Shown here: piece after piece, positions 3,489-19,078 of the stretch
Layout: every line of letters begins with the position of its first letter
Position numbering within the stretch: the stretch's first letter is position 1
From: an uncultured virus (IMG/VR IMGVR_UViG_3300002133_000084)
Lineage: Duplodnaviria; Heunggongvirae; Uroviricota; Caudoviricetes
Strand: one strand, 5' to 3'
DNA: 28,839 bases
Virus record (IMG/VR): IMGVR_UViG_3300002133_000084
The notes under the pieces: generated by a model
Seen by the model: only the letters and a program-made list of their open reading frames with translations
What the model was told of the DNA's origin: nothing
The model's database searches: none
Translations under genes and position numbers: made by a program

Positions 3489-3524
3489 AATGAATCTCCT
3501 CCCAGAGATTAGCCCCTTGGGGCA

Positions 3525-3690: not shown

Positions 3691-3742
3691 TTAAGTACGA
3701 TTATTTTCCAGTCTGTTTTTGAATTCTATACACACGAAGACT

Positions 3743-6700
3743 ATGCCAAACGCCCAGGATCCAGTTGTCCAGCACCAAATAATGAAGCAGAACGTCGCCG
3801 ACTCCATCGCGGCCCAGTTTCCCTTTGAGGGCAAGCAGAACAAGCTCGTCCTCAACAAGATCTGGACAGAAGACAAGCCCATCGATTTTGAGACAATGAA
3901 AGAGGCCCGATTAAACGATTCCACCATCGCGGCCCCTGTCTATGGAGATGTTTCCCTGTTAGATAAAAACGGCAAGGAGATGTCGCGCACGAAGAAGATG
4001 CGCCTCGCCCAAGTGCCCGTTCCAACACCCCATGGGACATTTCTGGTTAACGGCACGGAGTACCAAATCGCTCAGCAAGAACGACTTAAGCCGGGTGTCT
4101 ACGCTAGGACAACCGCTTCTGGACAGCTACAAGCACAAGTCAACTTGGCCAAGGGAATGAACTTCTCTGTGGGATTAAATCCCGAGCGCAGAAAGCTCGA
4201 AGCGAAGTTCGGCACCGCCAACGTAGGCTTATACGATCTGATGAAGATCATGGGCACTTCGGATGGGGAACTGCAGAAGGCCTGGGGCAAAGAGATCTTG
4301 GACGCCAACCAAGTCTCCAAAGAGAAAGTCAATCAGTCGGCCGCCAAGATTCACAAGGTATTATTTCGCAGGGATCACTCTAATGGAACGGCGCCGGATA
4401 CCGCTGAGGGAATGCAGAAGGAGCTGCGGGATTACTTCTCGGACACCGAGATCGATTCTAAAACTACTGAGCGAACTTTAGGCAAAGGCTTTAAGAAAGT
4501 AACCGCAGATCTATTGGGTAGGACTTCAGAGAAACTGTTAAACATTTCTCGTGGCGATGAAGAAGTCGACAATAGAAATGCGTTGATCTTTAAGAGCTTT
4601 CACGGCCCAGAAGATCAATTAAAGATAAAACTGGATCACTGGAAAACTAAAGGCCCTATTGCTAATACGGTGAAGTGGAAGGTTGATCAGAAGGACGACG
4701 TACGCAAAGTCATCAACAACAAAACCTTCGACAGGGGCGTCGAGGAGTTTTTCACATCGAGCTCACTATCCAATGCGACAGAACAAAACAACCCTCTATC
4801 GATTATTGGCGAAGCTACTAAAAGCACCGTGCTCGGAGAGGGAGGAATATCTAGCTCGCGAGCGGTGCCCGACGATGCGCGTAACCTCGAATCCACTAGC
4901 CTCGGATTCATGGATATGGTGCACACTCCTGAATCCGATCGTGTGGGTATTACTCTACACACTGGCGTTGATACTATTCGTGAAGGTAACATCCTAAAGA
5001 CGGCCGTAAGAGAAAGAGCTACTAATCGCGCGCGCCACATCGATCCCGAGGAGATGTTTGACTCTATTGTAGCCTTCCCCGATCAATTTACCGGCAACAA
5101 GGCTAAGTCTAGTGAAGTCAAGGGCATATACCAAGGACGAATGGGGACGTTCAAGGCTTCGGATGTAAAATTCATCTTGGACAGGGCGCAGGGCATGTTC
5201 GACATGTCCACTAATATGATTCCCTTTCTTGGCTCTACTCAGCCGACACGCGGGTTAACAGCTTCTAAGCAGTCTGAGCAATCGGTTTCTCTTATTGAGA
5301 GAGAAGCCCCCCTCGTACAGATTGCTACGGGCAAGGGTAAAACCTTCGAACAGGAAGTGGGTGAACAGTATTCCTGGCGTGCGCCTATTGATGGAGTCGT
5401 TGAGGAAATTAAAGATGGGATGATGGTAATAAAGAACGGGCGCAAGACGGAAAAGCTCGTCCTACCCAATAACTATCCCTTAAACCAGAAGACGTTCATC
5501 CACGCCGAGATGAAGGTGAATGTTGGGGATAAAATCAAGAAAGGCGATCTCCTAGCCGACACCAACCACACCAAGGATGGCGTGTTGGCTTTGGGAAGAA
5601 ACCTGTCTGTTGCCTATATGCCCTATAAAGGCCTCAACTTCGAAGATGCTGTCGTTATAAGCGAATCGGCCGCCAAGAAGATGACATCGGAGCATCTACA
5701 TCATAAAGATGTGGGCATCGATGAGAACTCGTCGACGGATCTCAAGAAGTTCAGAGCGCATGCGCCTGGCATAATTTCGGACAAGCACGCTGAGAACCTA
5801 ACGGCCGATGGGGTTATTAAGGTTGGGACGAGAGTGGAGCCCGGGGATGTGTTGGTTGCCCATTTACGCGAAGAAGCCATTACCCCAGAAGACAATATGA
5901 TGTCTCGCCTGATGAAGTCGCGCGCGCGTCCGTGGAAGGATCGCTCGGTGACGTGGGACAATGACTTTGGTGGGGTAGTCACAGATATAGCTAAGACTGG
6001 CTCCAAGATAAAGGTGTACGTCAAAACTGAAGAGCCCATGCGTGAGGGTGATAAGATTGTGGGCCGTCATGGTAATAAGGGTATCGTCTCTAAGATTATA
6101 CCCGATGTGGATATGATTAAAGATGAGGCGGGTAATCCGATCGATCTGATCATGGATCCACACGGCGTTCCATCCCGTATCAATGCCGGGCAGATATTAG
6201 AGACGGCCGCAGGCAAAGCGGCTCGCAAGAAGGGTGAGATCTTTGAGGTGGAAAACTTCAAGGGAGATATATCCAATTGGCTCGGAAACGTTAAGGACTA
6301 CCTGAAGGATGCCGGCGTAAAGGATAAGGAGGATGTCTTCGATCCAACTACTAATAGAACGATTCCTGGGATATTAGTGGGAGATCAATATATCACCAAG
6401 CTCAAGCATCAGGTGGAACGCAAGTTTGGCGCGCGTAATATAACAGGCCACGACATCAACTTGCAGCCTAAGGGTGGTAAGTACGGCGCCCAGAGCCTTG
6501 ATCACCTTACACTCTACACCATGCTGGCTCACGATGCGCGCGCGAACATACGAGAAATGAACTCATCTATTAAGTCGGAAAAAAACGACGAGCTATGGCT
6601 GAGATTGCAATCAGGTATGTCTCTACCCAAACCTCAGCCAACCTTCGCCTGGGATAAATTTAAAGGCATGATGACGGGCATGGGGGTAAAGGTGATTCAC

Positions 6701-7009
6701 GAAGGAAATAAGATGGGGCTCACCCCATTGACTGATAGGGATATCGAAAACATATCGCGCGGCGCCATTGAAAATCCCACTAGGGTTGTTGGCCGAGGCG
6801 ATATGCGCCCAGAAAAAGGTGGGCTATTTGATCCAGAGATAACCGGTGGGCTATCTGGCGATCGATGGAGTCATATTGATCTAGCTGAGCCTCTACCCAA
6901 TCCAGTACTGGAAAAGGGGATACTCAGTCTAACGGGGCTGAAGAAGAAGGATTTTGACTCTCTCATATCGGGCGAGCGGCATATAAATGATAAGGGAGAA
7001 TTCGTATGA
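3743..7009 (+). CDS. rpoB: Phage multi-subunit RNA polymerase: beta subunit fused to the N-terminal segment of beta-prime
   Basis: Beta motifs GTFLVNGTE, EQNNPLS, HTPES, MIPFL, ALGRNL, GLNFEDAVVISE, GDKIVGRHGNKG, GVPSRINAGQILE, YITKLKH; the C-terminal ~95 aa (PEKGGLFDPEITG...SHIDLAEP) match the start of beta-prime. ATG 3743 preferred over TTG 3719. Confidence 0.95.
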   Translation: MPNAQDPVVQHQIMKQNVADSIAAQFPFEGKQNKLVLNKIWTEDKPIDFETMKEARLNDSTIAAPVYGDVSLLDKNGKEMSRTKKMRLAQVPVPTPHGTFLVNGTEYQIAQQERLKPGVYARTTASGQLQAQVNLAKGMNFSVGLNPERRKLEAKFGTANVGLYDLMKIMGTSDGELQKAWGKEILDANQVSKEKVNQSAAKIHKVLFRRDHSNGTAPDTAEGMQKELRDYFSDTEIDSKTTERTLGKGFKKVTADLLGRTSEKLLNISRGDEEVDNRNALIFKSFHGPEDQLKIKLDHWKTKGPIANTVKWKVDQKDDVRKVINNKTFDRGVEEFFTSSSLSNATEQNNPLSIIGEATKSTVLGEGGISSSRAVPDDARNLESTSLGFMDMVHTPESDRVGITLHTGVDTIREGNILKTAVRERATNRARHIDPEEMFDSIVAFPDQFTGNKAKSSEVKGIYQGRMGTFKASDVKFILDRAQGMFDMSTNMIPFLGSTQPTRGLTASKQSEQSVSLIEREAPLVQIATGKGKTFEQEVGEQYSWRAPIDGVVEEIKDGMMVIKNGRKTEKLVLPNNYPLNQKTFIHAEMKVNVGDKIKKGDLLADTNHTKDGVLALGRNLSVAYMPYKGLNFEDAVVISESAAKKMTSEHLHHKDVGIDENSSTDLKKFRAHAPGIISDKHAENLTADGVIKVGTRVEPGDVLVAHLREEAITPEDNMMSRLMKSRARPWKDRSVTWDNDFGGVVTDIAKTGSKIKVYVKTEEPMREGDKIVGRHGNKGIVSKIIPDVDMIKDEAGNPIDLIMDPHGVPSRINAGQILETAAGKAARKKGEIFEVENFKGDISNWLGNVKDYLKDAGVKDKEDVFDPTTNRTIPGILVGDQYITKLKHQVERKFGARNITGHDINLQPKGGKYGAQSLDHLTLYTMLAHDARANIREMNSSIKSEKNDELWLRLQSGMSLPKPQPTFAWDKFKGMMTGMGVKVIHEGNKMGLTPLTDRDIENISRGAIENPTRVVGRGDMRPEKGGLFDPEITGGLSGDRWSHIDLAEPLPNPVLEKGILSLTGLKKKDFDSLISGERHINDKGEFV

Positions 7010-7206
7010 GTGCAGAAAGATTTTTTATGGGGATGCAAAAGGTGGCAGACGATCGCCTTACACTCGTGACAAGCGGCGAGGCTACGAAGAAGCTTAAAGA
7101 GTTTCACGGCGATAATATGGTTCCTTATACAGAGGAAGAGACTAGGGAATTCTGGAAGCAGTGGGCAAAAGATCAAGAAACCAAAAAGACAAAACCAACT
7201 AAATAA
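7006..7206 (+). CDS. Small hypothetical protein, candidate virion internal protein
   Basis: ATGA overlap with the RNAP stop; N-terminal RFFMGMQKVA motif; no Cys. Confidence 0.6.
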   Translation: MSAERFFMGMQKVADDRLTLVTSGEATKKLKEFHGDNMVPYTEEETREFWKQWAKDQETKKTKPTK

Positions 7207-7220
7207 TAAAATAAATCACA

Positions 7221-7916
7221 ATGAATGTGACTGATATGAGCAAAGCTATAAGATTTTATGATGGAATGTCAAAGATTGCCGGTGTTGGCTGGGATATTCA
7301 TGGGTACGCCATGCCGCACAAAGAAGAATCCTCCCTGCGGGAAAGAATTGAATTGGCGAGCCAGAAAGAGGATGAACATTTCAATAGTAAGATACTTCCA
7401 GAAGTCGGCAGATCTCCATCGAGAGATTCATTTATGGAGAGGAAGAAGATTCTCGGGCTAATACCCTGGGGATCCAAGTCTATCAATCGGGATAGATTTG
7501 CAGAGGCGATGAATGCATATAGGGAAAAGGTAAGATCGGCGCAGGATAGGCACCCGTTCGACGGTGAGGGATCAGTAGATCTACAAGATAAGATAATGGC
7601 GTCAAAAATAAGGACGCCCTACGACAGGGATTCGAATTATAAGCTCAATGCCAATGTCCAATTTATGTCCAGCGATGCTCAAGGGATAGATGACATGACA
7701 AGCGATTTCGGCTTAGGGGATAAAATAAGGGATCGCCCAATGAGCAGGGAGGATCTCATATCATTCAAAGAGCGATGGAATAGGGCAGCGGAAGCATATG
7801 CCAAGGGGAATCCAGACAGTCCGCATTTGCAATCAGGTGTACGTGGGTTCAACAACAAAATAGATAGCTTGCTGGCAAACGAAAAAGCTCAGTTTTACAG
7901 AGCTGAATGGGAATAG
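7221..7916 (+). CDS. Hypothetical protein, candidate virion internal/ejected protein
   Basis: 231-aa ORF, RFYDGMSKIA motif, no Cys. Confidence 0.7.
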   Translation: MNVTDMSKAIRFYDGMSKIAGVGWDIHGYAMPHKEESSLRERIELASQKEDEHFNSKILPEVGRSPSRDSFMERKKILGLIPWGSKSINRDRFAEAMNAYREKVRSAQDRHPFDGEGSVDLQDKIMASKIRTPYDRDSNYKLNANVQFMSSDAQGIDDMTSDFGLGDKIRDRPMSREDLISFKERWNRAAEAYAKGNPDSPHLQSGVRGFNNKIDSLLANEKAQFYRAEWE

Positions 7917-7923
7917 GATTTTT

Positions 7924-8211
7924 ATGGACACCTCAAAGAGGGATGGATTCGCTAGAGATATGGGCCCAGCTGGAGAGTCTGCCCTTATAGGCGTCGTAAA
8001 AACAAAGCCATGTCTGGTGTTGGCCTTTCCAGATCAAGATGTATTCGATCAGGATAAAGATCCAGATGAATTGGTAGAAATAAAGATCGATGTCTATAGT
8101 AAGGAGCTAGATGTGGAATCCAAAACTGGAAGACATGCCTTAGTGCGATGGCTGCAAAGCCTCATAGCCACTCTTGAAGATGATAACACTGGACTACCTG
8201 GAGGATTTTAA
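7924..8211 (+). CDS. Hypothetical protein
   Basis: 95-aa ORF tightly packed between its neighbours. Confidence 0.65.
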   Translation: MDTSKRDGFARDMGPAGESALIGVVKTKPCLVLAFPDQDVFDQDKDPDELVEIKIDVYSKELDVESKTGRHALVRWLQSLIATLEDDNTGLPGGF

Positions 8212-8787
8212 GTGGCAATAGGTGGATACTCCTATGCATCTACGCAGATCAATCTTCCGGCTGATATCACAGAGAGGATACAGGAGTGGAGTCGCGAGTT
8301 TATACCAGACTCTCATTTGTATCACAGTGATGACGATACGCATGGCCGCCGCCCGGATAGTCATGTAACCGTTCTGTATGGACTGGAATCAGATAACTCT
8401 GGCGATGTAGCGGAAAAACTTAAGGGATTCGGCCCCATATCTTTCAATTTGGGTAAGATTTCCACATTTGAATGTGAAAAGTACGATGTGGTTATCATCG
8501 AGGTGGACGGGGAGAGGTTACATAAAGCCAACAGTATTCTACGTGAGCTGCCCAATCAAAACACCTTCCCGGACTATAAGCCACACGTTACTATAGCCTA
8601 CGTAAAAAAGGGGCTTGGATCTAAGTATTTAGGCAATGAAACGTTTGCTGGCACCAAAATAGAGTCGAGTGGCATTGTGTTTTCTGGATCTGATGGCGGC
8701 AAGGTAGTCATACACATCGATCCCCCAGATGGGTTTGACATGTTCTCCTCTGCATTCTCCAGGGAATTAGAATCCTCCTTGAAATAA
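8212..8787 (+). CDS. 2H phosphoesterase (T4 gp57B / Acb1-like, 2'-5' RNA ligase superfamily)
   Basis: Two HxT motifs, SHVTVLYG and YKPHVTIAYV, about 73 aa apart; GGAGG RBS before the GTG. Confidence 0.85.
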   Translation: MAIGGYSYASTQINLPADITERIQEWSREFIPDSHLYHSDDDTHGRRPDSHVTVLYGLESDNSGDVAEKLKGFGPISFNLGKISTFECEKYDVVIIEVDGERLHKANSILRELPNQNTFPDYKPHVTIAYVKKGLGSKYLGNETFAGTKIESSGIVFSGSDGGKVVIHIDPPDGFDMFSSAFSRELESSLK

Positions 8788-8867
8788 AATATAGACAAAT
8801 AGTGCCTACTACTGTACATAGAACTGCATTTTTGTTATATTTAGGTGACATATAGGAGGGCGTTAAT

Positions 8868-9110
8868 CTGGGACAGGCACAAATATTATATGATAATTCG
8901 ACAGATTTAAACTATTCTGAGCTGGCCGAATCTTCAGAGAGTATTCGAATATGCGGAGATAGGGTATTTGTAGACGGTGGACTTGAGTTGCGGGACATCG
9001 CCTCCGCTTCTATATCTGGATCGTCCGACGCATATCTGGGGATATTAACTTTTAATAATGGCTCCCAGGTTATATGCAATATATCATCTATTGAGATTGA
9101 TATTAAATGA
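8868..9110 (+). CDS. Hypothetical 80-aa protein with CTG start (missing from the ORF track)
   Basis: Open frame 8868-9110; AGGAGG RBS 8 nt before the CTG; in-frame TAG at 8853 excludes an upstream start; stop overlaps the next ATG (ATGA). Confidence 0.55.
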   Translation: MGQAQILYDNSTDLNYSELAESSESIRICGDRVFVDGGLELRDIASASISGSSDAYLGILTFNNGSQVICNISSIEIDIK

Positions 9111-9391
9111 CTGAAAATATTAGCCTTACAGCACTGATGGAGGGGGATGACATTATTCCCTACTACTCTGATTTACTCGGAGAAGAAGTTATGTTAGCTG
9201 GCAATAAAGCTGACATACCCGATGATGGTAAGGTTTATTATCGAGTCTCCGAATTGCAACAATTAAAGGGAATGGATCCAGATCATGTGAAAAAAATACA
9301 CATGGTAAAGAGAGTATTTTCTGGATCCATCGCACTATTTGCATCATGTATTCCCATGTACTATACTGTTGGTGCATGCTTTAATGTTTAA
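9107..9391 (+). CDS. Hypothetical phage protein
   Basis: S.LLGEEV....Y..SEL..L....IH.VKR.F.G pattern resembles small phage proteins; translationally coupled. Confidence 0.65.
   Translation: MTENISLTALMEGDDIIPYYSDLLGEEVMLAGNKADIPDDGKVYYRVSELQQLKGMDPDHVKKIHMVKRVFSGSIALFASCIPMYYTVGACFNV
9339..9367 (+). promoter_or_regulatory. Sigma70-like promoter, ATGTAC-TATA class
   Basis: TTGCAT-17 nt-TATACT with ATGTAC immediately 5' of the -10. Confidence 0.6.
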
Positions 9392-9405
9392 TGTCTCTTT
9401 TGGTT
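9390..9405 (+). promoter_or_regulatory. Operator-like 16-mer AATGTCTCTTTTGGTT (copy 1)
   Basis: Identical copies at 11978-11993 (-) and 27857-27872 (+), each next to a promoter. Confidence 0.65.
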
Positions 9406-10113
9406 CACATGAATATAATTGGTATAGGACATAAGGCGCGGCGCGGTAAAGATGCCGCCGCTATATATCTGAGCAAAAAATATGAACTGGCACATCTATC
9501 GTTTGCTGCTAGCGTATACGATGAGTGCAGATCTGTTTTTGTTCACTATAAAACATATTTGCCGGATATAGAGATGCTGTCCATCTTCTGCCCATCGGTT
9601 GACTTGGCCCCCAATGTATATGTCAGAGGGGGACATACCTCTATTGAGGGTAATATTCACAATCTGTTAGATTTAGTCTTGGCGTGGATAACTGATGTGG
9701 GCGAGTTGACTCATTTTTCTGGCGGCTGCGAGCAGTGGGATTACCGCGGTATGAAGCAGAAGGACAGCAGGCTATTGCAGTGGTATGGCAATGATTACCG
9801 CAGGGAATTGTTTGGGCACGACTACTGGATTAATAAGGTGGACGCCCAGATCAATGAATTGAGTGGGGCTGTAAATGGTGTGGTTCTAGCCGACATGCGC
9901 TACAAGAACGAGGCTCGCTACATCAAATACAAGGGTGGAACGTGCTGGAAGGTGCATAGAGATGAGCCACTGGAGGACACAGGCCGCGATCCCAACCACA
10001 TCTCTGAGATAGATTTGGATAATTGGAACTTTGATTATGTAATACACAATGACAAAGATCTGATCAACCTATATGTGCGAGCAGATGAGTGCTATTTGAA
10101 GGCGACTAAATGA
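9391..10113 (+). CDS. Deoxynucleoside monophosphate kinase (T4 gp1 / T5 dnk-like)
   Basis: IIGIGHKARRGKD P-loop, LSFA, RLLQWYGNDYRR, VLADMRYKNE, HISE..LD; the true start may be ATG 9409. Confidence 0.88.
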   Translation: MSLLVHMNIIGIGHKARRGKDAAAIYLSKKYELAHLSFAASVYDECRSVFVHYKTYLPDIEMLSIFCPSVDLAPNVYVRGGHTSIEGNIHNLLDLVLAWITDVGELTHFSGGCEQWDYRGMKQKDSRLLQWYGNDYRRELFGHDYWINKVDAQINELSGAVNGVVLADMRYKNEARYIKYKGGTCWKVHRDEPLEDTGRDPNHISEIDLDNWNFDYVIHNDKDLINLYVRADECYLKATK

Positions 10114-10667
10114 GTTCCACCTACTCACAGCTCGCCAGTATGATGTCTGGTAAAAAAGTAAAGGCGGCGGCCAAGCCGACAAGGGTTGGAAAGAAGGTGG
10201 ATGTCACAGTGGGAGAGGATGTATTTCCACTCTTTTTAGAGATTCCGTTAGCGCCTATCGTCAAAAAGAATAGTCGCCCAATTTTTATAAATAAAACAAC
10301 GGGCAAGCCATTTATAGGTAAATCTGACGAACTGAGGGATTGGGAGAAGGATGCAGAGGATCACCTTAGATCTCAGTTGGCTAAAAAGGGGCTGGCAGAT
10401 CTAAAGTTAGATATACCACTTCTGTGCACCATGTTCATTTATAGGGCGCAGTCTTCCTCTAGTCCGGGGGATCTATCGAACTACGTTGAAGCCCCTCAGG
10501 ATGCAATGGAAAAGGCTGGGGTAATGGATAACGATCGCCGCATTCGTAGCCTGGATGGTACTCGATTATTGCAGGACAAGCGCCCGCGCATAGAAATACT
10601 ACTATGGCCCCTGGAGAAATGTCCATACGCAATTGACGTGGAGGAGCATTTCGATGGAGCTCGGTGA
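10110..10667 (+). CDS. rusA: RusA-family Holliday junction resolvase
   Basis: KKNS motif; GDLSNYVEAPQDAMEKAGVMDNDRRI matches the RusA DxDN...D.L...G...DD pattern; PRIEI at the C-terminus. Confidence 0.85.
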   Translation: MSSTYSQLASMMSGKKVKAAAKPTRVGKKVDVTVGEDVFPLFLEIPLAPIVKKNSRPIFINKTTGKPFIGKSDELRDWEKDAEDHLRSQLAKKGLADLKLDIPLLCTMFIYRAQSSSSPGDLSNYVEAPQDAMEKAGVMDNDRRIRSLDGTRLLQDKRPRIEILLWPLEKCPYAIDVEEHFDGAR

Positions 10668-10854
10668 TCATCACGATTTGGCAAATCGATTATTAGAGAG
10701 AAGATTGCGATTATTAGAGAGAAGATTGAGGAAAAAGGCCGCCAGTAATTCAGTTCCTGAGTGTAATAAAGTTGAGCTACCCATATCGGCAGAATTTACC
10801 GTCGACGGAGGAGAACCACAAACAGCTCCCATTATAAGGGCAGAAGCAAAGTGA
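10654..10854 (+). CDS. Small hypothetical protein
   Basis: ATG 10654 after GGAGGAG; contains a duplicated RLLERRL; stop overlaps the next GTG. Confidence 0.5.
   Translation: MELGDHHDLANRLLERRLRLLERRLRKKAASNSVPECNKVELPISAEFTVDGGEPQTAPIIRAEAK
10687..10728 (+). repeat. Exact 21-bp tandem duplication
   Basis: CGATTATTAGAGAGAAGATTG x2. Confidence 0.9.
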
Positions 10855-11402
10855 ACGATATGTTCGACGAATCATTTGAATATCAATTGAAAATTGCAGC
10901 CTCTTTTGGCAAGGGAATATTAGCCGGGGCCGATATTACCGGCGAGATGCCGCTAGAAATGGGCGTTGATGCGCGCCGCTCAGATAATGGCGATATGAAG
11001 AATATTGCAATTGGCGGTGGAATACTGGGAGGGCTTGTAACTGGGCCAGCTACCCCCGCCTTGGTTCATGGAACCAATAAAATGAATAGGGCGGCCAATA
11101 GTCTTCCAAAAGGTACCAGCATGTCAAAAAGGCTTAGTGTTCGTGCGAAGGCCTTTGCCAATGGAACCGTGGATGGATTTAAGGATGCATACAAGGCTCC
11201 ATTTAAAAAGGGCATTGGCAAGGGTGGCAGAATAGAAGCCCTGGTTCCATTTATACTTGGCGCGGCAAGTCAGGCTGCCATGTCTGCCAATCAATATCGC
11301 CTAGGGAGAAAGATGCGCAATAAAGTAGAGTCTGATGTTGCAGCTAAGGGGTTTTCTGGGTGGTGGAGACGACAGATGGAAGCTGTTCCAAAAATAGATT
11401 AG
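10851..11402 (+). CDS. Gly/Ala-rich basic protein with glycine-zipper-like segment, candidate ejected virion protein
   Basis: SFEYQLKIAA N-terminal motif; IAIGGGILGGLVTG; no Cys. Confidence 0.7.
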   Translation: MNDMFDESFEYQLKIAASFGKGILAGADITGEMPLEMGVDARRSDNGDMKNIAIGGGILGGLVTGPATPALVHGTNKMNRAANSLPKGTSMSKRLSVRAKAFANGTVDGFKDAYKAPFKKGIGKGGRIEALVPFILGAASQAAMSANQYRLGRKMRNKVESDVAAKGFSGWWRRQMEAVPKID

Positions 11403-11411
11403 GGGGGCACA

Positions 11412-11897
11412 ATGATTCCTTGGCGGTATTCGATTTCTAGGGGTGAAGGGCATTGCGATCCTATTTCCCTGGAGAAAACAGACGACTATTTCCCCAGATT
11501 TTATGAGTGGATGACATTCTTCTCATCGTGTGAGTTTGTGAAAATGATACCCGGCATGTATGCCAGATGTATGGTTGTGTCGGATGATATGTGTGTGAAA
11601 TTTGATCCATCTGGAGAGATAACACGTCCAGAAATAAAATTTGGCGAATATTTTGTATATCAGGCCGTGGTTGCCCTGTCTTCTCCTGATGACGATTGGC
11701 AGAAGAGGATGCATAGCATGGGATACCATTATATGATGGACGGGGGCGATGTAAATAAGACGGCTGCCATAGTTATGCTGGAGGGCGATCTAAACTGCGA
11801 GGTTCTGGGAGACACGGTAGTGGTGTGTGGCCCGCGCGCGGAGCAGGATAGAAGTAAATACGATAAGATATCTAAGAAAAGTATCGCCCCAGAGTAA
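11412..11897 (+). CDS. Hypothetical protein
   Basis: 161-aa ORF with G-rich RBS. Confidence 0.65.
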   Translation: MIPWRYSISRGEGHCDPISLEKTDDYFPRFYEWMTFFSSCEFVKMIPGMYARCMVVSDDMCVKFDPSGEITRPEIKFGEYFVYQAVVALSSPDDDWQKRMHSMGYHYMMDGGDVNKTAAIVMLEGDLNCEVLGDTVVVCGPRAEQDRSKYDKISKKSIAPE

Positions 11898-11914
11898 AAA
11901 AGTGCTCAATCATG

Positions 11915-11943
11915 TTGCAATCAGTTCACATATGTACTATATA
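11915..11943 (+). promoter_or_regulatory. Sigma70-like promoter, ATGTAC-TATA class
   Basis: TTGCAA-17 nt-TATATA with ATGTAC directly upstream of the -10. Confidence 0.6.
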
Positions 11944-11972
11944 TGTAGGTACTGGTTTGCTTTTACCTTTTA

Positions 11973-12629
11973 ATGTTAACCAAAAGAGACATTATGAAGC
12001 CAGGTGCTCGTAGAACATACAATGATGACGATTTTACTAAGGGTGGATTCGGCGAGCGGCTTTTTGAGCTCGATCTCGAGCGACAAAACGCCAACTACCT
12101 CCCTTTCCATATGTACACACAAGACGGTGCTCCTTTAGCCATTATAAATGGAAAAAAATACATAGCACCCGACTTCTTTCTATTTCGATCGGATAAGAAA
12201 GAGATTGCGCGCTGGGTTGAAGTAAAAACCAAGATGTCTGCAGACTACACGCGCAAAGAAAAGAGATACGATCATGGTGTGGACGCATACAACGTAGAGC
12301 AGTACATGCAGGTGGCGCGCGCATCGGGCAAAGAGGTGTACTTAGCCGTATTCGAACTTAAGCCCACCCTAACCCTCCTTATTCGCAAGCTGTCTACCCT
12401 GATGAATCTAGAGGGGACATTGGCGCCGCGCCGCGGATACACGATTAGGCGGGATGACGAGGATCAAATCAAGACTCCTATGATCTACTTCCCAAGGGAT
12501 GGCTTTAAGGAAGTAGATCCACCTAATCCAGGGGTATTAAATGAGAATGACTACGACAACAAAGAAGTAAAGCGGATTATCATAGAAGGCCGCAGCACAC
12601 TAAAACAGGGAGAGTTGTTTAATGCCTAA
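11973..12629 (+). CDS. PD-(D/E)XK superfamily nuclease
   Basis: G..GE helix, IAPDFFLF, WVEVKTK; the start may be ATG 11994. Confidence 0.75.
   Translation: MLTKRDIMKPGARRTYNDDDFTKGGFGERLFELDLERQNANYLPFHMYTQDGAPLAIINGKKYIAPDFFLFRSDKKEIARWVEVKTKMSADYTRKEKRYDHGVDAYNVEQYMQVARASGKEVYLAVFELKPTLTLLIRKLSTLMNLEGTLAPRRGYTIRRDDEDQIKTPMIYFPRDGFKEVDPPNPGVLNENDYDNKEVKRIIIEGRSTLKQGELFNA
11978..11993 (-). promoter_or_regulatory. Operator-like 16-mer (copy 2, inverted)
   Basis: AACCAAAAGAGACATT is the reverse complement of AATGTCTCTTTTGGTT. Confidence 0.65.
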
Positions 12630-13107
12630 AATTGGAAGCGCCGTAAAGTGGGGCGGAATAGATGCCCTTGTCATTGGTGAAAATGACGACGGCACCGTAG
12701 ATGTATCAGCAGTAGCAAAAGTCCTAAACGATAGTTGCGAAACGCACATTACGATCGTGGGGCGCACCCAGGACTTGAAGGACGGCCCGAAGGAGATGCA
12801 GGTAATCGATCAGAGAAAGGGTGCTCCGATTGAAAAAACGGAAGAAGAGCCCGCGGCCGAAGAGGCTAAATTGGATACAGAGGTGGAAGAAGCAGGGGAG
12901 CCTGAGGGCGATAGTACATCTTCCGAGTCAGACGGAGCGCAAGTTGTCGTCGGGGGAGAAGATGACGAAGCTGGAGCGGACACACCTGAAGAGGGTGAAA
13001 CTGCGAGCGAGGTTGGCTCCGCTAAGCCATTGGAGCCCATGGAAGACACGCTCAACGACAATGTCGAACCGGTAAGTAAGAGCGGACGCCGGAAGAAGAA
13101 TAAGTAA
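12622..13107 (+). CDS. Hypothetical protein, small beta domain plus acidic disordered tail
   Basis: E/D-rich low-complexity C-terminal half ending in a basic tip; GGGGAG RBS. Confidence 0.7.
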   Translation: MPKIGSAVKWGGIDALVIGENDDGTVDVSAVAKVLNDSCETHITIVGRTQDLKDGPKEMQVIDQRKGAPIEKTEEEPAAEEAKLDTEVEEAGEPEGDSTSSESDGAQVVVGGEDDEAGADTPEEGETASEVGSAKPLEPMEDTLNDNVEPVSKSGRRKKNK

Positions 13108-13535
13108 TGATTCCCGAAGAATACCCCCTCTTATCGGTGGGGAGTAAAAATGACATCGACACCATTCTGGGTGAGCGCAAAAAAGTTATTGCGCGCCAGA
13201 TGGATCACCTAATTGTCATGTGGGACAAGGTGAAGATTCATATGCTGGCAAATGAGCAGTCTGGACAACTAGTTTACAGCTCAGTCGATAGTGTGGGATT
13301 TATTGCACTCCTTGAGGTTGACTTAACATTCAAGGTTGGCAAGCTACTTTGGAAGACTGATAAGGATGGCTTCATTGAGCCCGGAGAGCACATTAACATA
13401 TTCTTCAAATTGATACGGAATCAGCAAGACGAGCATTTCTTGGGATGGCTGGCCGATCTTTACTCCCAGATAGCGATAAACGCCCTGATGGGGAATAATC
13501 AGGTAAACGCTCGATTTGTATTCGAGGATAGATAA
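13107..13535 (+). CDS. Hypothetical protein
   Basis: 142-aa ORF coupled by a TAATG overlap. Confidence 0.7.
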   Translation: MIPEEYPLLSVGSKNDIDTILGERKKVIARQMDHLIVMWDKVKIHMLANEQSGQLVYSSVDSVGFIALLEVDLTFKVGKLLWKTDKDGFIEPGEHINIFFKLIRNQQDEHFLGWLADLYSQIAINALMGNNQVNARFVFEDR

Positions 13536-13910
13536 GGCGGGAACCGAATCTCTCGCCCAACTGAACGCCGTGATTCGGAGTGGGGAATCAGCCAGTATTC
13601 CCCGGGTGGCCAACATAATAGAGAAGCACAATTCTGGCCTAGTTACACAAAGTTGTTGCATCGTCGGATAGCACTGGAAGTGCACCACACACGGGCCGAC
13701 GCTCAAGTATGCGAAGTATCGTTAGCGGTTCTGGGAGACTGATCTAGGAGCTGGGGTTAGAAGGGCATATGAGCCCACCCCTTTGGGATATAAACACTTG
13801 GTAACAGGTGTACCATTGCTGAGCTGGATACCAATCGCGGGGGAACTGAAAGTGTGGATGCGGGTAGCTGGGCCCGGGGAAAGCCCAGACAACTGTGTGT
13901 AACTAGAATA
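13536..13910 (+). ncRNA. Candidate large structured non-coding RNA (unassigned)
   Basis: No credible CDS; 17/18-bp closing helix 13639-13656/13889-13906; internal hairpins incl. ACACTTG-GTAA-CAGGTGT (GNRA loop) and CTGGGC/GCCCAG; directly precedes tRNA-fMet. Confidence 0.55.
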
Positions 13911-13915
13911 ATTTT

Positions 13916-13990
13916 CGCGGGGTGGCGCAAAGGTAGCGCGTCGGGCTCATAACCCGAAGGTTGGCGGTTCAAGTCCGCTCCCCGCTTCCA
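13916..13990 (+). tRNA. tRNA-fMet (initiator, anticodon CAT)
   Basis: CGCGGGG acceptor with unpaired C1, anticodon arm TCGGG-CTCATAA-CCCGA with three G-C pairs, GGTTCAAGTCC T-arm, encoded CCA. Confidence 0.95.
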
Positions 13991-13993
13991 TAT

Positions 13994-14157
13994 GCCAACA
14001 GCTTACGAGCACCGCACAGATAAAGCGGGTTGGCGGAGGGGCACTCTCCTCTCATTAAACAATCGCTCGGGACAGAGAACTCCGATGGCAAGGCCATTGA
14101 AATATGAGGTTAAAATCCTCTCGGCAAGTGGCGGTATGCGAAATCCCGAAGTGCCCT
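13994..14157 (+). ncRNA. Structured inter-tRNA element (unassigned)
   Basis: GCCAAC/GTTGGC; GGGCAC/GTGCCC; TCGGGA/TCCCGA; internal GAGG-TTAAAAT-CCTC T-arm-like hairpin. Confidence 0.4.
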
Positions 14158-14162
14158 TTAAT

Positions 14163-14237
14163 GCCGGTATAGCTGAGTTGATTTAGCACTCCCCTTGTAA
14201 GGGAGATACGGGGGTTTGAATCCCTCTACCGGCTCCA
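14163..14237 (+). tRNA. tRNA-Thr (anticodon TGT)
   Basis: GCCGGTA/TACCGGC acceptor, CTCCC-CTTGTAA-GGGAG anticodon arm, encoded CCA; T-loop is TTTGAAT. Confidence 0.9.
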
Positions 14238-14243
14238 AGATTG

Positions 14244-14545
14244 ATGCGTCCTCTTAGTGGTTCTGCAGTCGGGGTTTCATCGCCTCGTTAGTACTCCTAC
14301 CACGATCAGGTGGCCACTGCAGGCTTCCCGGTTATCAGGGGCACATCATACCGGAAGGCCCTGTGCAACTATGTCGTCGAGGGGTCAACGACTGTGCAAG
14401 GCCTTCCGGACACAAATTGCCGAACAGATATGGCAACCAACCATCGGAAAGAGTCGGCCATAGGCGCAGCGAGTGAAGGGAATAAGCGATTGGGCCGGTA
14501 CCCTGATTGCCCTGCAAACACACATGTAGCTCGCCCGCCTTGATA
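14244..14545 (+). ncRNA. Candidate structured non-coding RNA (unassigned)
   Basis: CTGCAGT/ACTGCAG; perfect CCGGAAGGCC (14351-60)/GGCCTTCCGG (14400-09); long-range ATCAGGG/CCCTGAT; no credible CDS. Confidence 0.5.
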
Positions 14546-14614
14546 ACTAACCCACCCCAAATAGGGTGGAGACAGAAGAACTGATATCACCTACTCTAAA
14601 AGGATATAGCTATC

Positions 14615-15241
14615 ATGGCTTGGGGTGATAAACATATGCGCTATCAGCGCATGGAAGAAGTATTGGGAGTTGACGATCTGGCCAGTGGCTTGATCACTCC
14701 CGCAGTAAACGAAGGTGGCGCTGCCACATTCGCCGCAGGTGCTTTGTTGGTTGATTCGCTCGCCGGCAATGTCATCACCAAAGAGATTGGCACCTTGGGT
14801 ATTCAGGGCCTTTCGTTTGAAGCTGCGGGCGCGCACTTGCGCTTCGCATGGGATGTCCCCAGTTACGTCGACACTCAGAGAAATCTCGGTATCAAAGTAC
14901 GCTGGGCGACGAATTCGGTTACGGATGCCGACGACATTCACTGGGTTGCACTGCATGGCATGATCGCCGACGGCGAAGCATTGGCTGCTCCGGCAACCGT
15001 GCTCGACACGGCTATCGCCGCTGAGACGGTGGGTGCGGGCGCTGCATTGGCTCGCCACACAAGCCCCCGTGGTGTCATTTTAGCTTCGAAGATCAGCGCT
15101 GGCGATACGGCCATCTTTGATCTCGAGCTCGATGTCTGCGATGCAGACGTTGGTGCAACGGAAAGCGTCTGGCTGACAGGCGTAGTCTTGGACTTCGTGC
15201 CCCGTTTTATGAAGGGTGACGCGCGCTCCACGTTAGTGTAA
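14615..15241 (+). CDS. Probable virion structural protein (beta-rich, decoration-like)
   Basis: Ala/Val/Thr-rich with beta-strand pattern (LRFAWDVP, IKVRW, VWLTGVVLDF); AGGA RBS; followed by a strong terminator. Confidence 0.6.
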   Translation: MAWGDKHMRYQRMEEVLGVDDLASGLITPAVNEGGAATFAAGALLVDSLAGNVITKEIGTLGIQGLSFEAAGAHLRFAWDVPSYVDTQRNLGIKVRWATNSVTDADDIHWVALHGMIADGEALAAPATVLDTAIAAETVGAGAALARHTSPRGVILASKISAGDTAIFDLELDVCDADVGATESVWLTGVVLDFVPRFMKGDARSTLV

Positions 15242-15244
15242 AAG

Positions 15245-15287
15245 AATAGCCCGGGCGCTAATGTGGCGTCCGGGCTATTTCCTATTT
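15245..15287 (+). terminator. Rho-independent terminator
   Basis: AATAGCCCGGGCGCTA-ATG-TGGCGTCCGGGCTATT then TCCTATTT. Confidence 0.7.
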
Positions 15288-15336
15288 AAGAAAACAACAA
15301 CGATAGAAGCCGTAACCGGCGGAACGTATACATATA

Positions 15337-18156
15337 ATGGCCGAAGATCTAAAAACTGGTGGCGCAGCCATCCAACACCTCCTATCCAAAATCGACACCA
15401 ACAGTCGTATAGGGGAGATCGAGGGCGAATTAAAAACTGCCCGCGGCACTAATCGTACTAAGCTTAATCGTGAGCTAGGATACCTAAAGGCCCTCAAGGA
15501 ATCTGGCGACACAGCAGACAAAGCATACATCATTAATAAGGTTCCCGTACTTCCCCCTTCTATGCGCCCCGTCTATACAAATGAGAAGGGGCAGCTTGTC
15601 GTATCAGACGTCAATGAGCTCTATCAGGGCATGGGCGCCGTTAATGAGCAGCTTACCAGCTTAAAGGACTTACCCGATTCAGAAAAGAAGGCCCTTAGAA
15701 AAGATTTGTATGATGGACTCAAGGCTATTCAAGGCCTGGGCGATCCCATATCCCACAAACAATCCCTCAAGGGTATCTTCCGCCAAATTGCCGGCACTAA
15801 TAGTCCGAAGGGTGGCTACTTTCAGCACCGGTTGACGCGCCGCCGGCAGAATGTATCCGGCCGATCGACAATCACCCTGGGTGAAGATTTAGATATTGAT
15901 CAGGTAGGACTGCCGGAAGAAATGGCGTGGACGCTGTTTCGTGATTTTACCGTAAAAGAACTGGTGTCTAATGGACACACCAAGGCGGATGCGCTCGAGC
16001 AAATAAAAGATCGCACATCCACAGCAGAGAAGGCGCTGCAGCACGCAATGAATCAGCGCCCAGTATGGCTTAATAGATCACCATCCCTGCATCGCCATTC
16101 TATCATGGCGTTCAATCCCGTATTAACACCGGGGAGAGATATAAAGATTAATCCACTCGTCGTAAAAGGCTTCAATGCCGACTTCGACGGCGATAGTATG
16201 TCTGTCCATGTACCCGTCACAAGAGAGGCGGTGGATGAGGCTAAAGTGCGAAAGCCAACGGATATCTTATTCTCGGCTGGTACGGAAAAACTAATGCTCG
16301 TGCCAGGCCAAGCTTCCGCCTTGGGCCTCTACCTAATGTCCAACACAGACGGAGAGGTAGTGGGTGAATTCAAAAATGAGAAAGAGGCGCTTGCAGAGAG
16401 CAGGGCTAATACCATACGCGATGAAGACACGATTCTCGTTAATGGCAAGAAGACTACTGCGGGACGCATTAAAATTGATGAGCAAATCCCAGAAGGATTC
16501 CGGGAATACGGAACATTAAACAAAAAGAATCTGGAAAAGATGCTTTCTGATATTGCCGTGTCCCGCCCAAAGGATTATGGTGGCATCGTTGGCAAGCTGC
16601 GCAAGATGGGCGATGAGTATGCCACTAATAGGGGATTTTCCATTGGACTAGACGATTTGGATCCCCTAACTGGAATGCGCGATCAGATGTTATCTGATGC
16701 AGACAAAAAGATCCAAAAAGGTTCGATTGGGAAGACAGAGAAAGAAAAGGATGCCCTATTCTCTGAGGTATATGGGGAAGTGGCATCCAAGATGGAGGAT
16801 GAGATTGGCAAGACACTAGCCAACTCAGATAACTCTGTTGGGCACATGCTCATCTCTGGATCCAGAGGATCCGCTGCGCAGGCGCGGCAAATCTTCGCTG
16901 CTCCCCTACTTGCCCAGGATGCATCAGGTAGGCCTATCCCCATTCCTATTAAGAACTCTTATATGGAGGGATTAGATACACAGGAATACTTCGCCGCCGG
17001 CTATGGCGCGCGCGCTGGTGCTGTGGGTAGATCACATCAAACTGCTCTACCTGGAGCCTTGGCAAAAGAGGTTCTAGCCTCTGTTGTGGATTCTGTAGTT
17101 ACAGAACACGAGTCCGAAGACATGCCATCTCTAAAGATGAGCACCAAGCGACAGGATGATGATTTAGTAGATCGATTCCTGGCCGCCGATGTCAGCGGCA
17201 AGGGAGGCAGGAAGGTTGCCAAGAAGGGAGATCTGCTCACCTCCGCAAAGTTATCTAGGCTGCGGGAGGAGGGCGTATCTGATGTCGACGTCTACACTCC
17301 ATTAAATGCTGAATTACCTGGAGGCGGCATACCCGCCAAGGCGTTTGGACTAGATGAGAATGGCAAGATTCCTGACATAGGCACCAACCTTGGATTACTG
17401 TCTGGCCACTCCATGACGGAACCGATCAGCCAAATGACATTGGACGCATTTCACTCTGGCGCTACCGGTGGAACGAAGGGGCGCGTATCCAAGTTCGATC
17501 GCATCCAGCAGTTATTCCAATTGCCCAAAGCTCTTCCCGGGAAAGCTACCCTAGCAAAGAAGGATGGGCGGATTGGTGCAGTAAGGGATTCTCCTGCTGG
17601 CGGCTGGGATGTAGAGATAGGCGGAGATACTCACTATGTGCCCAAGGGCAATCCACTCAAGATAAAAGAGGGTGATGCAGTAAGGGCTGGCGAAGCTATA
17701 TCAGATGGCCCAATACAGCCACATGAACTCTTGGAGATCAAAGGGCTGCCGGCCGTACAAGAATACCTTACGGACGAAATCCAAAAAGAAACAGGCGTCA
17801 AGCGTCGCTGGGTGGAAACAGTGGTGGGCGCTATGACGAGTATGTCCGAAGTAGATGATCCGGGCGATTCTGAATTTTACCCCGGAGACTCAGTGCCCAA
17901 TTGGGCTATCCGCAAGCACAACAAAGATCCACAAACAACCAACATACAAGCCAAGCCCATCTTCAAGGGCGTCAATATGCTTCCACTAGTAAAGGCGGGA
18001 GACAACTGGCTGGCAGGCATGGATTTCAGGCGCCTAAAGGACGTCATATCGGAAGGAGCCCTAAATAACAAGTGGAGCGAGCTGAGTAGTGTGAACCCCA
18101 TACCAGCAGTTGCATACGGAGCCGATTTTGGCCTCGGAGAAAAAGGGAGGTACTAA
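15337..18156 (+). CDS. rpoC: Phage multi-subunit RNA polymerase, beta-prime subunit lacking its N-terminal segment
   Basis: Catalytic FNADFDGD (NADFDGD at 16174-16194), VPVLPPSMRP, SGRSTI, LNRSPSLHR, SGSRGS, YGARAG bridge helix, EPISQMTLDAFHSG trigger loop. Confidence 0.96.
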   Translation: MAEDLKTGGAAIQHLLSKIDTNSRIGEIEGELKTARGTNRTKLNRELGYLKALKESGDTADKAYIINKVPVLPPSMRPVYTNEKGQLVVSDVNELYQGMGAVNEQLTSLKDLPDSEKKALRKDLYDGLKAIQGLGDPISHKQSLKGIFRQIAGTNSPKGGYFQHRLTRRRQNVSGRSTITLGEDLDIDQVGLPEEMAWTLFRDFTVKELVSNGHTKADALEQIKDRTSTAEKALQHAMNQRPVWLNRSPSLHRHSIMAFNPVLTPGRDIKINPLVVKGFNADFDGDSMSVHVPVTREAVDEAKVRKPTDILFSAGTEKLMLVPGQASALGLYLMSNTDGEVVGEFKNEKEALAESRANTIRDEDTILVNGKKTTAGRIKIDEQIPEGFREYGTLNKKNLEKMLSDIAVSRPKDYGGIVGKLRKMGDEYATNRGFSIGLDDLDPLTGMRDQMLSDADKKIQKGSIGKTEKEKDALFSEVYGEVASKMEDEIGKTLANSDNSVGHMLISGSRGSAAQARQIFAAPLLAQDASGRPIPIPIKNSYMEGLDTQEYFAAGYGARAGAVGRSHQTALPGALAKEVLASVVDSVVTEHESEDMPSLKMSTKRQDDDLVDRFLAADVSGKGGRKVAKKGDLLTSAKLSRLREEGVSDVDVYTPLNAELPGGGIPAKAFGLDENGKIPDIGTNLGLLSGHSMTEPISQMTLDAFHSGATGGTKGRVSKFDRIQQLFQLPKALPGKATLAKKDGRIGAVRDSPAGGWDVEIGGDTHYVPKGNPLKIKEGDAVRAGEAISDGPIQPHELLEIKGLPAVQEYLTDEIQKETGVKRRWVETVVGAMTSMSEVDDPGDSEFYPGDSVPNWAIRKHNKDPQTTNIQAKPIFKGVNMLPLVKAGDNWLAGMDFRRLKDVISEGALNNKWSELSSVNPIPAVAYGADFGLGEKGRY

Positions 18157-18157
18157 G

Positions 18158-19066
18158 ATGGATGAAGTATCTATTTACATGCATGATCTAGGGCGCATGC
18201 CCGTCATGTCCTCCAAGGACGAGACGACAGCATTTAGTGCTCTTCGCGAAGGCGATGATTCAATGCGCGAAAAGATAGCGCGCGCGAATCTCAGGTTTGT
18301 TGTCAGCGTGGCGGGGGACTATGCATCAGACTCCTCGTCATTTATGGATCTAGTGCAAGATGGAAACATGGGCCTACTCAAGGCCATTGATAAATTCGAT
18401 CACAATAAAGGGTTCAAGTTTATCACCTATGCCGTGTGGTGGATCCGGAGAAGCATCTTGGATGCCATCCAGAGAGACAGGACGATACGCCTGCCAAAAC
18501 ACGCATATGAGGATATGCGCAGGTGCTCCATCGCCCTCAACGAATACAATAGAGACATACTCAGGGCGGCCAGGGAATCGGTTGAATTATCCGATCAGCG
18601 CGTAGATAATGTGCGCCAGCTATCCAACAATATTATGTCCATCGATTACAATAATGTGGATGACGAGGCGTCCCAATCCAATACCTGGCTTCGCGATGAC
18701 AGCGCCGCCAGAGACATGGAGTATGGGATAGAGATGGATGAGCTTAGGGACAAATTTACAGAGTGCTTTAATCATCTAGATAAGCGCGCATCCTATATCA
18801 TCAAGTCGTATTATGGGCTATGCGGGCATGACGCTTGCACCCTGGAGGCTATTGGCGAGAGGATGAATTTGACGCGCGAGCGCGTTCGGCAAATTAAAAA
18901 GATTGCCCTGCGTCGACTCAAATTGATGATACCTGAGTCGTATCACATCAACTCAGATGAGGCCGAGGTGGACGTCGATGAGCTATTAAAAATCGTCCAA
19001 ATAAATGCCCGTCGCATGGAAAATTACACTGAGGGCTGGGAAGATAAGTCAGCCATAAATGCATAA
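18158..19066 (+). CDS. RNA polymerase sigma factor, RpoD/RpoS-like (sigma70 group 1/2, no region 1.1)
   Basis: Region 1.2 YMHDLG, ANLRFVVSVA, DLVQDGNMGLLKAIDKFD..KGFKFITYAVWWIR, region 4 TLEAIG.RMNLTRERVRQI; ATG 18158 with GGGAGG RBS. Confidence 0.93.
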   Translation: MDEVSIYMHDLGRMPVMSSKDETTAFSALREGDDSMREKIARANLRFVVSVAGDYASDSSSFMDLVQDGNMGLLKAIDKFDHNKGFKFITYAVWWIRRSILDAIQRDRTIRLPKHAYEDMRRCSIALNEYNRDILRAARESVELSDQRVDNVRQLSNNIMSIDYNNVDDEASQSNTWLRDDSAARDMEYGIEMDELRDKFTECFNHLDKRASYIIKSYYGLCGHDACTLEAIGERMNLTRERVRQIKKIALRRLKLMIPESYHINSDEAEVDVDELLKIVQINARRMENYTEGWEDKSAINA

Positions 19067-19078
19067 CAATAATACAAC

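Follow-up and report, generated by a model that had tools for sequence, protein, structure and literature searches.

The window analysed here is IMG/VR record IMGVR_UViG_3300002133_000084, a stretch of 28,839 nucleotides (nt) from an uncultured virus of the Caudoviricetes, and the system in question is the bacterial-type RNA polymerase (RNAP) that it encodes in two open reading frames (ORFs) lying 8.3 kb apart. In a preliminary description, made from the sequence alone, the first ORF was read as beta continuing into the start of beta-prime and the second as the rest of beta-prime. The protein of the first ORF (chain 1) is referred to as P0001 and that of the second (chain 2) as P0002; P0001 is numbered from a TTG at 3719, which places the ATG at 3743 at residue 9. 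The features concerned are the following, with lengths in amino acids (aa):

3743..7009, plus strand: chain 1, 1088 aa with ATG start; complete beta and the N-terminal ~130–150 positions of beta-prime, minus the zinc ribbon
6728..6964, plus strand: beta-prime-derived tail in chain 1 (P0001 1004–1082, by profile-profile alignment)
6965..7006, plus strand: frayed end of chain 1, last 14 residues, 31% identity within the clade described below
7006..15241, plus strand: intervening region of 8.3 kb with 15 plus-strand ORFs of at least 60 aa (one or two doubtful), mostly unrecognised
15337..18156, plus strand: chain 2, 939 aa; the remainder of beta-prime, from E. coli position ~177 onward to its C-terminal end

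The two polymerase chains

The ATG of chain 1 at 3743 agrees with the conserved N-terminus of the clade members in their alignment, and its TGA stop shares bases with the ATG that opens the following small ORF. Chain 1 matched the Pfam family Rpb2_6 (PF00562) with an E-value of 9.9e-62, and the double-psi barrel region of Rpb2 domain 6 is present with the GNKG lysine motif GRHGNKGIVSKI. The alignment to Thermus beta (E 7e-80) reached query residue 972, and positions 325–1050 of the 1096 in the NCBIfam rpoB profile were covered, at a score that did not reach the equivalog cut-off (359 bits vs 896). There is no stop at the usual end of beta; the reading continues through LTDRDIENISRGAIENPTRVVGRGDMRPEKGGLFDPEITGGLSGDRWSHIDLAEPLPNPVLEKGILSLTGLKKKDFDSLISGERHINDKGEFV and, past the beta C-terminus, runs on as LTDRDIENISRGAIENP...RPEKGGLFDPEITGG...WSHIDLAEP.

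Pfam did not see this tail, either in P0001 or in fused relatives (where PF04997 covered profile positions 162–276 only), and a profile-profile comparison was therefore made with hhalign. Profile A was built from the last ~106–114 residues of 8 proteins of the window's type and profile B from 54 bacterial beta-prime N-termini obtained by translating genome loci. The genome-collection scan returned nearly all ordinary bacterial rpoC and was used only for these N-termini and for outgroups. P0001 1004–1082 paired with bacterial beta-prime positions 25–138 (probability 95.9%, E 5.1e-9 for one comparison, 78 columns), and the single 32-residue gap in the alignment is exactly the CxC...CxxC zinc ribbon. 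The ORF thus does pass from the beta C-terminus into the start of beta-prime, with the zinc ribbon deleted, and the C-terminal ~95 aa to which the preliminary description had pointed do align to the RpoC N-terminus.

The tail also appeared in two pairwise searches. With phmmer, LKPEKGGLFDEEITG of the fused relative P0011 paired with LKPERDGLFDERIFG at residues 34–51 of Thermus beta-prime, a match too short for significance alone, and the BLASTP alignment of P0001 to the fused rpoBC of Helicobacter rodentium (L121) extended to P0001 residue 1089, i.e. through the tail. Within the clade, mean identity to the window is 62% for the tail vs 60% for the beta core, and 19 tail positions inside the 1031–1062 motif block are invariant among 8 sequences. 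The last 14 residues of chain 1 are the remnant end of the former linker.

Chain 2 begins with MAEDLKTGGAAIQHLLSKID, and an in-frame stop lies 7 codons 5' of its ATG. It had been described as starting at the GAEAI..LL..ID segment of beta-prime, which is where it aligned: residue 4 corresponds to 177 in E. coli beta-prime, 453 in Thermus and 170 in B. subtilis, and the alignment continues to the C-terminal region. Residues 5–917 correspond to positions 160–1124 of the 1147 in the NCBIfam rpoC profile, again below the equivalog cut-off (462.6 bits vs 963.5), and Pfam matches were obtained to PF00623 (E 5.8e-30) and PF04998 (E 5.7e-17). The NADFDGD magnesium loop occupies residues 280–286 (nt 16174–16194), and the sigma-docking clamp helices region, bridge helix and trigger loop are contained in the same chain. 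The catalytic motifs of both chains are intact.

Neither chain contains a cysteine (0 in 2027 aa), as against 60 in the 6359 aa (0.94%) of the other 34 ORFs (binomial P 4.5e-9), so that both beta-prime zinc sites have been lost. All 4 of the clade members checked are likewise cysteine-free, and the fused P0011 has 4 cysteines.

Abutment, relatives and assembly integrity

Both chains were aligned to the single-chain relative P0011, on which they lie end to end. P0001 799–1096 aligned to residues 1–333 (42% identity, 333 columns, joint gap-free) and P0002 2–939 to residues 336–1287 (36% identity), leaving 2 residues of P0011 unaccounted for, and the spacing from PEKGGLFD to VLPP is 134 residues over both window chains vs 135 in P0011. 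The two pieces therefore adjoin in protein space, as had been proposed. Proteins of the type found in Salmonella phage Arash and Vibrio phage D69 cover 97–98% of P0001, tail included. Because the beta/beta-prime joint of P0001 aligns gap-free to that of the fused relatives, covalent fusion would have come first and the cut second, and since chain 1 carries the family's own joint, obtainable only from a fusion, this history does not depend on the tree alone. The earlier proposal that an ancestral fused gene was later cut again at a new site in the clamp is supported in this respect, on the strength of the homologous joint and the end-to-end mapping of the chains.

With only 2 residues of the fused form left over, there is no space for the halves of a split intein at the new termini. 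An Rfam scan of the window for intron RNA at the break gave only two tRNAs. The ORFs flanking the break gave no HNH, LAGLIDADG or GIY-YIG match, which lends no support either way to a homing-endonuclease origin of the break.

Relatives were then grouped by where their chains end. A search with the tail (residues 930–1096) returned 18 proteins, 8 of them (P0003–P0010) of the window's type: these measure 1088–1102 aa except for one 774-aa fragment, share 57–97% identity in the tail and end 0–8 residues from the end of P0001. The other 10 carry Rpb1 domains or continue reading. With the head of chain 2 (P0002 1–220), 20 proteins were found, 10 of which (P0021–P0030) are 882–987 aa long and 56–100% identical, and M1, G8, G9 and A11 are invariant in an alignment of 8 beta-prime-rest relatives with P0002. 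A search for single chains gave 17 proteins of 1975–2861 aa, of which 15 are one beta/beta-prime chain and 2 (P0043, P0055) have a cut at another place, here called site B.

Many single-chain relatives (P0042, P0044, P0048, P0053, P0054 and others) carry LAGLIDADG or intein Pfam families and have lengths of 2400–4700 aa, and a homing endonuclease gene lies inside the beta part in Vibrio phages D148 and D181; the polymerase gene of this family is a frequent target of selfish elements. One single chain, P0046 (2045 aa), is recorded for the myxobacterium Pendulispora rubella, on a contig of 13.6 Mb, and may be a prophage or captured gene.

At the level of loci, 82 related loci (80 metagenomic, Vibrio phage D69 and Salmonella phage Arash) were classified:

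Fully fused: 22/82
Site B, cut after P0002 residue ~366–375 (Arash/D69 type, 1525–1546 aa + ~606 aa): 51/82
Reading through the window's site, otherwise truncated or frame-shifted: 3/82
Junction not contained: 5/82
L003, NN at the junction: 1/82

The window's cut site is read through in one ORF in 76 of the 82, and the window's cut was found in 0 of the 77 informative loci. L003 had been considered as a second example of the cut (7735–7819) and was rejected, since the NN at its junction shifts the frame and the reading continues in another frame; its gene is of the ordinary fused kind, with ~350 extra residues inserted in beta. In the cultured-phage collection, 32 records matched, and most of P0001 was covered by four only (D69, D148, D181 and Arash), of which D69 and Arash are site-B forms; no cultured phage record shows the window's cut. 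In the records searched, the split is not one already common among described phages. Fused beta-beta-prime genes, which the preliminary description knew from some uncultured phages, are here represented by the 22 loci and the 15 single-chain proteins. Its list of known split types holds in that those fall elsewhere, and was incomplete in that the family's own usual cut, site B, was missing from it.

No close relatives of P0001 or of the clade alignment were found in IMG/VR, and the relatives returned by a metagenome scan were at most 39% identical. Two further window proteins, searched against cultured phages, likewise had no close match. The lone beta-prime-like gene of Rhizobium phage RHph_TM30 (1127 aa) belongs to a different lineage.

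A tree of the beta part was computed with FastTree from 83 rows, 4 having been dropped as duplicates or fragment, with 3 bacterial outgroup rows that included cellular fused forms. The phage family was separated from the 3 bacterial rows with a support of 100, as it also was in the mixture-model tree described below. The window's type formed one clade of 8 of the 83 rows (support 100) and site B one clade of 40 rows (support 97), the remaining rows being fused; P0041 and P0042, both fused, lie closest to the window's clade (support 86). Under a mixture model in IQ-TREE with 39 rows, the window's clade (7 rows) obtained 100 and the site-B clade 96 in the Shimodaira-Hasegawa-like approximate likelihood ratio test, and the backbone became a polytomy in which five of the seven lineages are fused. 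A fused ancestor with two separate fissions is the simplest history.

Such a backbone would be compatible with a basal position of the window's clade, and then also with a phage that had always had two genes, in which the 5' end of a separate rpoC recombined onto the 3' end of rpoB without any fused intermediate. This is very improbable given the joint itself, which at 42% identity over its 333 columns is gap-free to that of the fused relatives, aligns as well to the Arash/D69 type (98% of the query covered) and leaves 2 residues of the fused form over; a fusion followed by a cut also takes fewer events.

The integrity of the assembly was assessed with Logan contigs of runs from other studies, which carry the region at 95–99% identity. 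Contigs of run X2 tile 3000–19500. The end of chain 1 (7009) is bridged by contigs from two further studies (X2 6940–7986, X5 6079–7216), and the start of chain 2 (15337) by X2 11348–19500 and X5 14403–17028. A minority joint 7002->7945 occurs in run X2 (depth 9.4 vs 17–20), with a loose end at 7945 in X5, so that the first cassette 3' of chain 1 varies between strains.

The separation of the two ORFs could in principle be a misassembly or chimera, or one ORF could be a decaying pseudogene fragment of a fused gene: the window comes from a metagenome assembly, a split was indeed mimicked in L003 by the NN at its junction, and one run has the variant joint 7002->7945. Misassembly is nevertheless very largely refuted because contigs of independent studies span both gene ends, which answers the concern about 7009–15337 raised at the outset, and because the termini are conserved in relatives, eight and ten diverged proteins keeping the same stop and start positions. 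Both ORFs are moreover full length with intact motifs, and the tail is conserved like the core, which leaves the artefact or pseudogene explanation extremely improbable.

The ORFs 7006–7206 and 7221–7916, the first two after chain 1, appear to form a strain-variable cassette; if the 7002->7945 joint is direct, the last residues and the stop of chain 1 are replaced too. Contig depth rises 4- to 15-fold over 13469–14019 (tRNA-Met) in X5 and X6, which is probably due to an identical tRNA sequence of other organisms and not to a change in copy number.

The cut loop and the probable two-chain enzyme

In the alignments, chain 1 ends ~14 residues past bacterial beta-prime position 138 and chain 2 begins at about 174–177. 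Since P0002 residue 4 pairs with E. coli 177 and with Thermus 453, and the N-terminal motif with Thermus 34–51, Thermus has ~290 extra residues somewhere in the cut interval. We take this extra stretch to be the non-conserved domain at about 158–452.

At E <= 0.001 the 107-residue tail matched 982 representative clusters, and a threshold of E <= 1e-10 left 599. The cut loop was inspected in the best 150 of the 982, among those with at most ~145 residues after the match. P0008 and P0009 among them belong to the window's clade, and three more clusters end within ~6 residues of the same point, namely P0079 (complete, 1095 aa) and the fragments P0059 and P0133. In P0092, P0163 and P0190 the chain ends after a ~45-residue acidic extension, without the beta-prime body, and the other inspected clusters continue into GGxAI. 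A distant beta-prime-rest protein, P0031 (43% identity), starts ~25 residues before GGxAI. In a 47-row FastTree tree, P0092 falls inside the Arash-like subclade of site B (4-row clade, support 100) and P0079 forms a separate, unresolved lineage outside the window's clade.

As P0092 lies within the Arash-like clade, the cut of its type arose independently, and by this placement the loop has been cut at least twice independently. The boundary that the preliminary description did not recognise is absent from the 77 informative loci but not unique, since it defines a clade and recurs in the Arash-like P0092 lineage. The longer Thermus beta-prime at this place and the recurrence of cuts in separate lineages suggest a permissive loop.

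A modular and regulatory function of the cut, i.e. a device as opposed to a neutral accident, is doubtful. If its modular part were true, beta with beta-prime 1–150 would be a natural assembly module, marked by the repeated cutting of the loop. If its regulatory part were true, the phage would time its active polymerase by expressing 'beta-prime body + sigma' apart from 'beta + clamp base'; separate timing is conceivable because chain 2 lies behind a terminator-like hairpin and is followed by an overlapping sigma gene (both described below).

The preliminary description had also called for a structure prediction of the pair, and a complex model was computed for the P0001 tail (990–1096) with P0002 1–420. 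The model scored 0.76 (best of 3 controls, 0.00). Among solved complexes 116 of 157 attained that mark, and among mismatched pairs 2 of 215 did. The model runs agree in at least 57% of contacts, with a partner pLDDT (predicted local distance difference test) of at least 58. Its firmest contacts are between P0001 1049–1061 and P0002 64–73, and INKVPVLPP of chain 2 is the partner of the chain 1 tail strand WSHIDLAEP. P0002 3–19 and P0001 1082–1096 also belong to the modelled interface, which brings the new termini next to each other. Bacterial RNAP structures have been solved, and the pass may for this reason reflect likeness to them and not independent evidence; the model shows compatibility of the tail and chain 2 as opposed to binding.

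These results bear on whether the tail is used at all. It could be a tolerated vestige, with a working enzyme made of beta and a truncated beta-prime, or the core could need host subunits. The family has dispensed with the two zinc sites and with many of the insertions of the bacterial enzyme (2027 aa here, compared with roughly 2750 aa for beta and beta-prime of E. coli), the similarity of other phage RNAP lineages to chain 2 starts only at residue ~50–70, and none of the 36 scanned window ORFs was recognised as alpha or omega. A vestige would not, on the other hand, be expected to be conserved as strongly as the catalytic core or to keep the 19 invariant positions, and in the model the tail strand lies, at low error, beside the VLPP strand of chain 2; we therefore regard this alternative as improbable.

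It is highly likely, from the joint, the abutment and the conserved termini, that the window encodes a two-chain RNAP with a shifted subunit boundary, which derives from a re-split fused gene and would reassemble non-covalently. An uncultured marine or aquatic tailed phage would thus encode its own slimmed bacterial-type RNAP core as two polypeptides. Its ancestor would have had beta and beta-prime as one fused gene, still the state in many living relatives, and this gene would have been cut within a variable surface loop of the beta-prime clamp (E. coli numbering ~150–177), giving chain 1 with the whole of beta and the N-terminal clamp segment of beta-prime and chain 2 with the remainder and its catalytic NADFDGD loop. 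The two chains would reassemble non-covalently into one active enzyme, which the phage sigma factors encoded after chain 2 would guide to phage promoters. After the fission, small accessory genes and tRNAs would have gathered between the halves until these stood 8.3 kb from each other, an order of arrival that we infer.

Several points weigh against this account. Assembly and transcription by the two chains are predictions from homology, and the part of the genome outside the window may carry another, uncut RNAP gene or genes for alpha and omega. The assignment of the tail comes from one profile-profile comparison together with collinearity, Pfam alone being blind to it, the family backbone is unresolved under the mixture model, and the sister pairing with P0041/P0042 has a support of only 86. 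The 8.3-kb separation is known from this phage only, the clade members having been compared as proteins, and the RNA run X15 gave only small contigs (5970–6150 and 15513–15690), which could be DNA carry-over.

Among known systems, Arash (gp206, 1525 aa, with gp216, 606 aa) and Vibrio phages D69, D148 and D181 are of the same family, with 33–34% identity over 97–98% of chain 1 and the same joint, and Arash, like the window, has a phage-encoded sigma factor. The Arash/D69 type is cut after the catalytic domain (P0002 ~360–375) and reads through the window's site, whereas the window enzyme is cut ~365 residues earlier; Arash-type genes adjoin portal and head genes, whereas the window's neighbours are replication, nucleotide and accessory genes. 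In the part of the Arash report available, gp206, gp216, the sigma factor gp10 and the helicase gp217 were detected in virions by mass spectrometry, and the polymerase proteins are annotated plainly as beta and beta-prime (PMC10585845).

The single-chain phage RNAPs (P0011, P0041–P0057, L004–L011) are collinear with both window chains at 36–42% identity; they consist of one polypeptide of ~2000–2900 aa, some with inteins or LAGLIDADG inserts, as opposed to two chains in the window. They are probably the 'mReC' Caudovirales, which according to the accessible part of that study encode beta and beta-prime, with fusion mentioned there only for crAss phage and no split (PMC7481178). P0092, P0163 and P0190 resemble the window in that the N-terminal segment of beta-prime is left on the end of beta, and differ in the acidic extension with which their chain 1 ends. 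The window enzyme has this one cut only, the 939-aa beta-prime body being one chain.

Cellular fused rpoBC genes (Helicobacter, Wolinella, Wolbachia, Ca. Adlerbacteria) have beta covalently joined to beta-prime, as in the window's ancestor, and differ from the window enzyme in having no cut, in retaining the zinc ribbon and in being bacterial enzymes of full size; the fusions in Wolinella and Adlerbacteria are described in the consulted sections of PMC11515920. Natural two-chain forms of beta-prime that assemble non-covalently are found in the cyanobacterial and plastid rpoC1-rpoC2 and the archaeal A'/A'', which are cut elsewhere. The cyanobacterial cut lies between beta'-uD3 and uD4 according to the same sections (PMC11515920). 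Chain 2 spans both the gamma profile (residues 4–342 at positions 185–528 of 626) and the beta'' profile (residues 416–710).

The phiKZ/AR9-type RNAPs are, as here, phage-encoded two-barrel enzymes in non-canonical pieces, with a different split pattern and 24–30% identity over 10–27% of chain 1. Enzymes of the phiKZ type work without a sigma factor, as stated in the portion consulted of PMC7824862. The searched literature, outside which lie about 1.7 million PubMed Central articles and most subscription papers, held no description of the window's architecture.

The window polymerase is, as judged from its homologues, a two-chain form, conserved in its clade, of a large and barely described phage RNAP family. 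To our knowledge, cellular RNAPs keep the boundary between beta and beta-prime almost without exception, the few deviations being rpoBC fusions and the cyanobacterial and archaeal cuts. The phage family indicates that this boundary can be erased and redrawn, here within the clamp and with the catalytic body kept whole. This would be useful for the study of RNAP assembly and also for the design of minimal or split polymerases, the enzyme here having 2027 residues and neither cysteine nor zinc. For annotation, pipelines label such ORFs just 'beta' or 'beta-prime' and overlook the moved boundary.

Neighbouring genes and signals

The following features were recorded between and after the two polymerase ORFs:

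8212–8787, plus strand: 2H phosphoesterase/Acb1-like ORF, 191 aa (family matches)
9391–10113, plus strand: deoxynucleoside monophosphate (dNMP) kinase (family match)
10110–10667, plus strand: RusA-like resolvase (family match)
13916..13990, plus strand: tRNA-Met (CAT)
14163..14237, plus strand: tRNA-Thr (TGT)
15244..15280, plus strand: hairpin followed by ATTTCCTATTT; 17 bp, GC-rich, -29.6 kcal/mol, z -6.6; 57 nt 5' of chain 2
18110..19066, plus strand: sigma-70 family factor, regions 2 and 4, RpoS/RpoD-like; the listed ORF (TTG start) overlaps chain 2 by 47 nt
21534..22055, plus strand: second small sigma-70 family factor, FliA/ECF-like, regions 2 and 4; 3.4 kb beyond chain 2

About 14 genes, two tRNAs and a terminator had been reported between the chains. 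The tRNAs and a strong hairpin are indeed there; the number of ORFs is 15, and the hairpin at 15244–15280 is absent from the list of a simple terminator scan. As this hairpin looks like a terminator, chain 2 probably opens a new transcription unit. The strongest terminator-like hairpin of the scan is at 3532–3559 on the minus strand (11 pairs, 8 GC, T-rich run), in the divergent intergenic region 5' of chain 1. A scan for sigma-70-type promoters gave 18 sites, fewer than the mean of 24.7 in shuffles.

No portal or head gene was recognised beside either polymerase ORF among the scanned window ORFs. None of the window's other genes was found in the 82 related loci, except for a primase zinc ribbon in L020 and a match of the sigma factor to Arash gp196 (26%). 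MzaA, which serves as sigma in an anti-phage system, is among the NCBIfam matches of the sigma factor at 18110–19066, with E 4.9e-52 and a score far below the cut-off.

The ORF at 8212–8787 matched the 2'-5' RNA ligase/2H phosphoesterase superfamily at E 1.4e-9 and, with a score above the cut-off, PF23474 of anti-CBASS Acb1 proteins at E 1.6e-7; by these matches it is a possible counter-defence gene, degrading cyclic nucleotides, between the polymerase genes. An Atlas look-up of ORF 7221–7916 gave only unnamed phage clusters. The ORF at 14615–15241 (208 aa, GC 0.568), just 5' of the hairpin, belongs to a widespread phage protein family: all 30 of its 30 nearest Atlas clusters are unnamed and mostly from Uroviricota, and the Atlas feature score is 0.97 for the three clusters shown.

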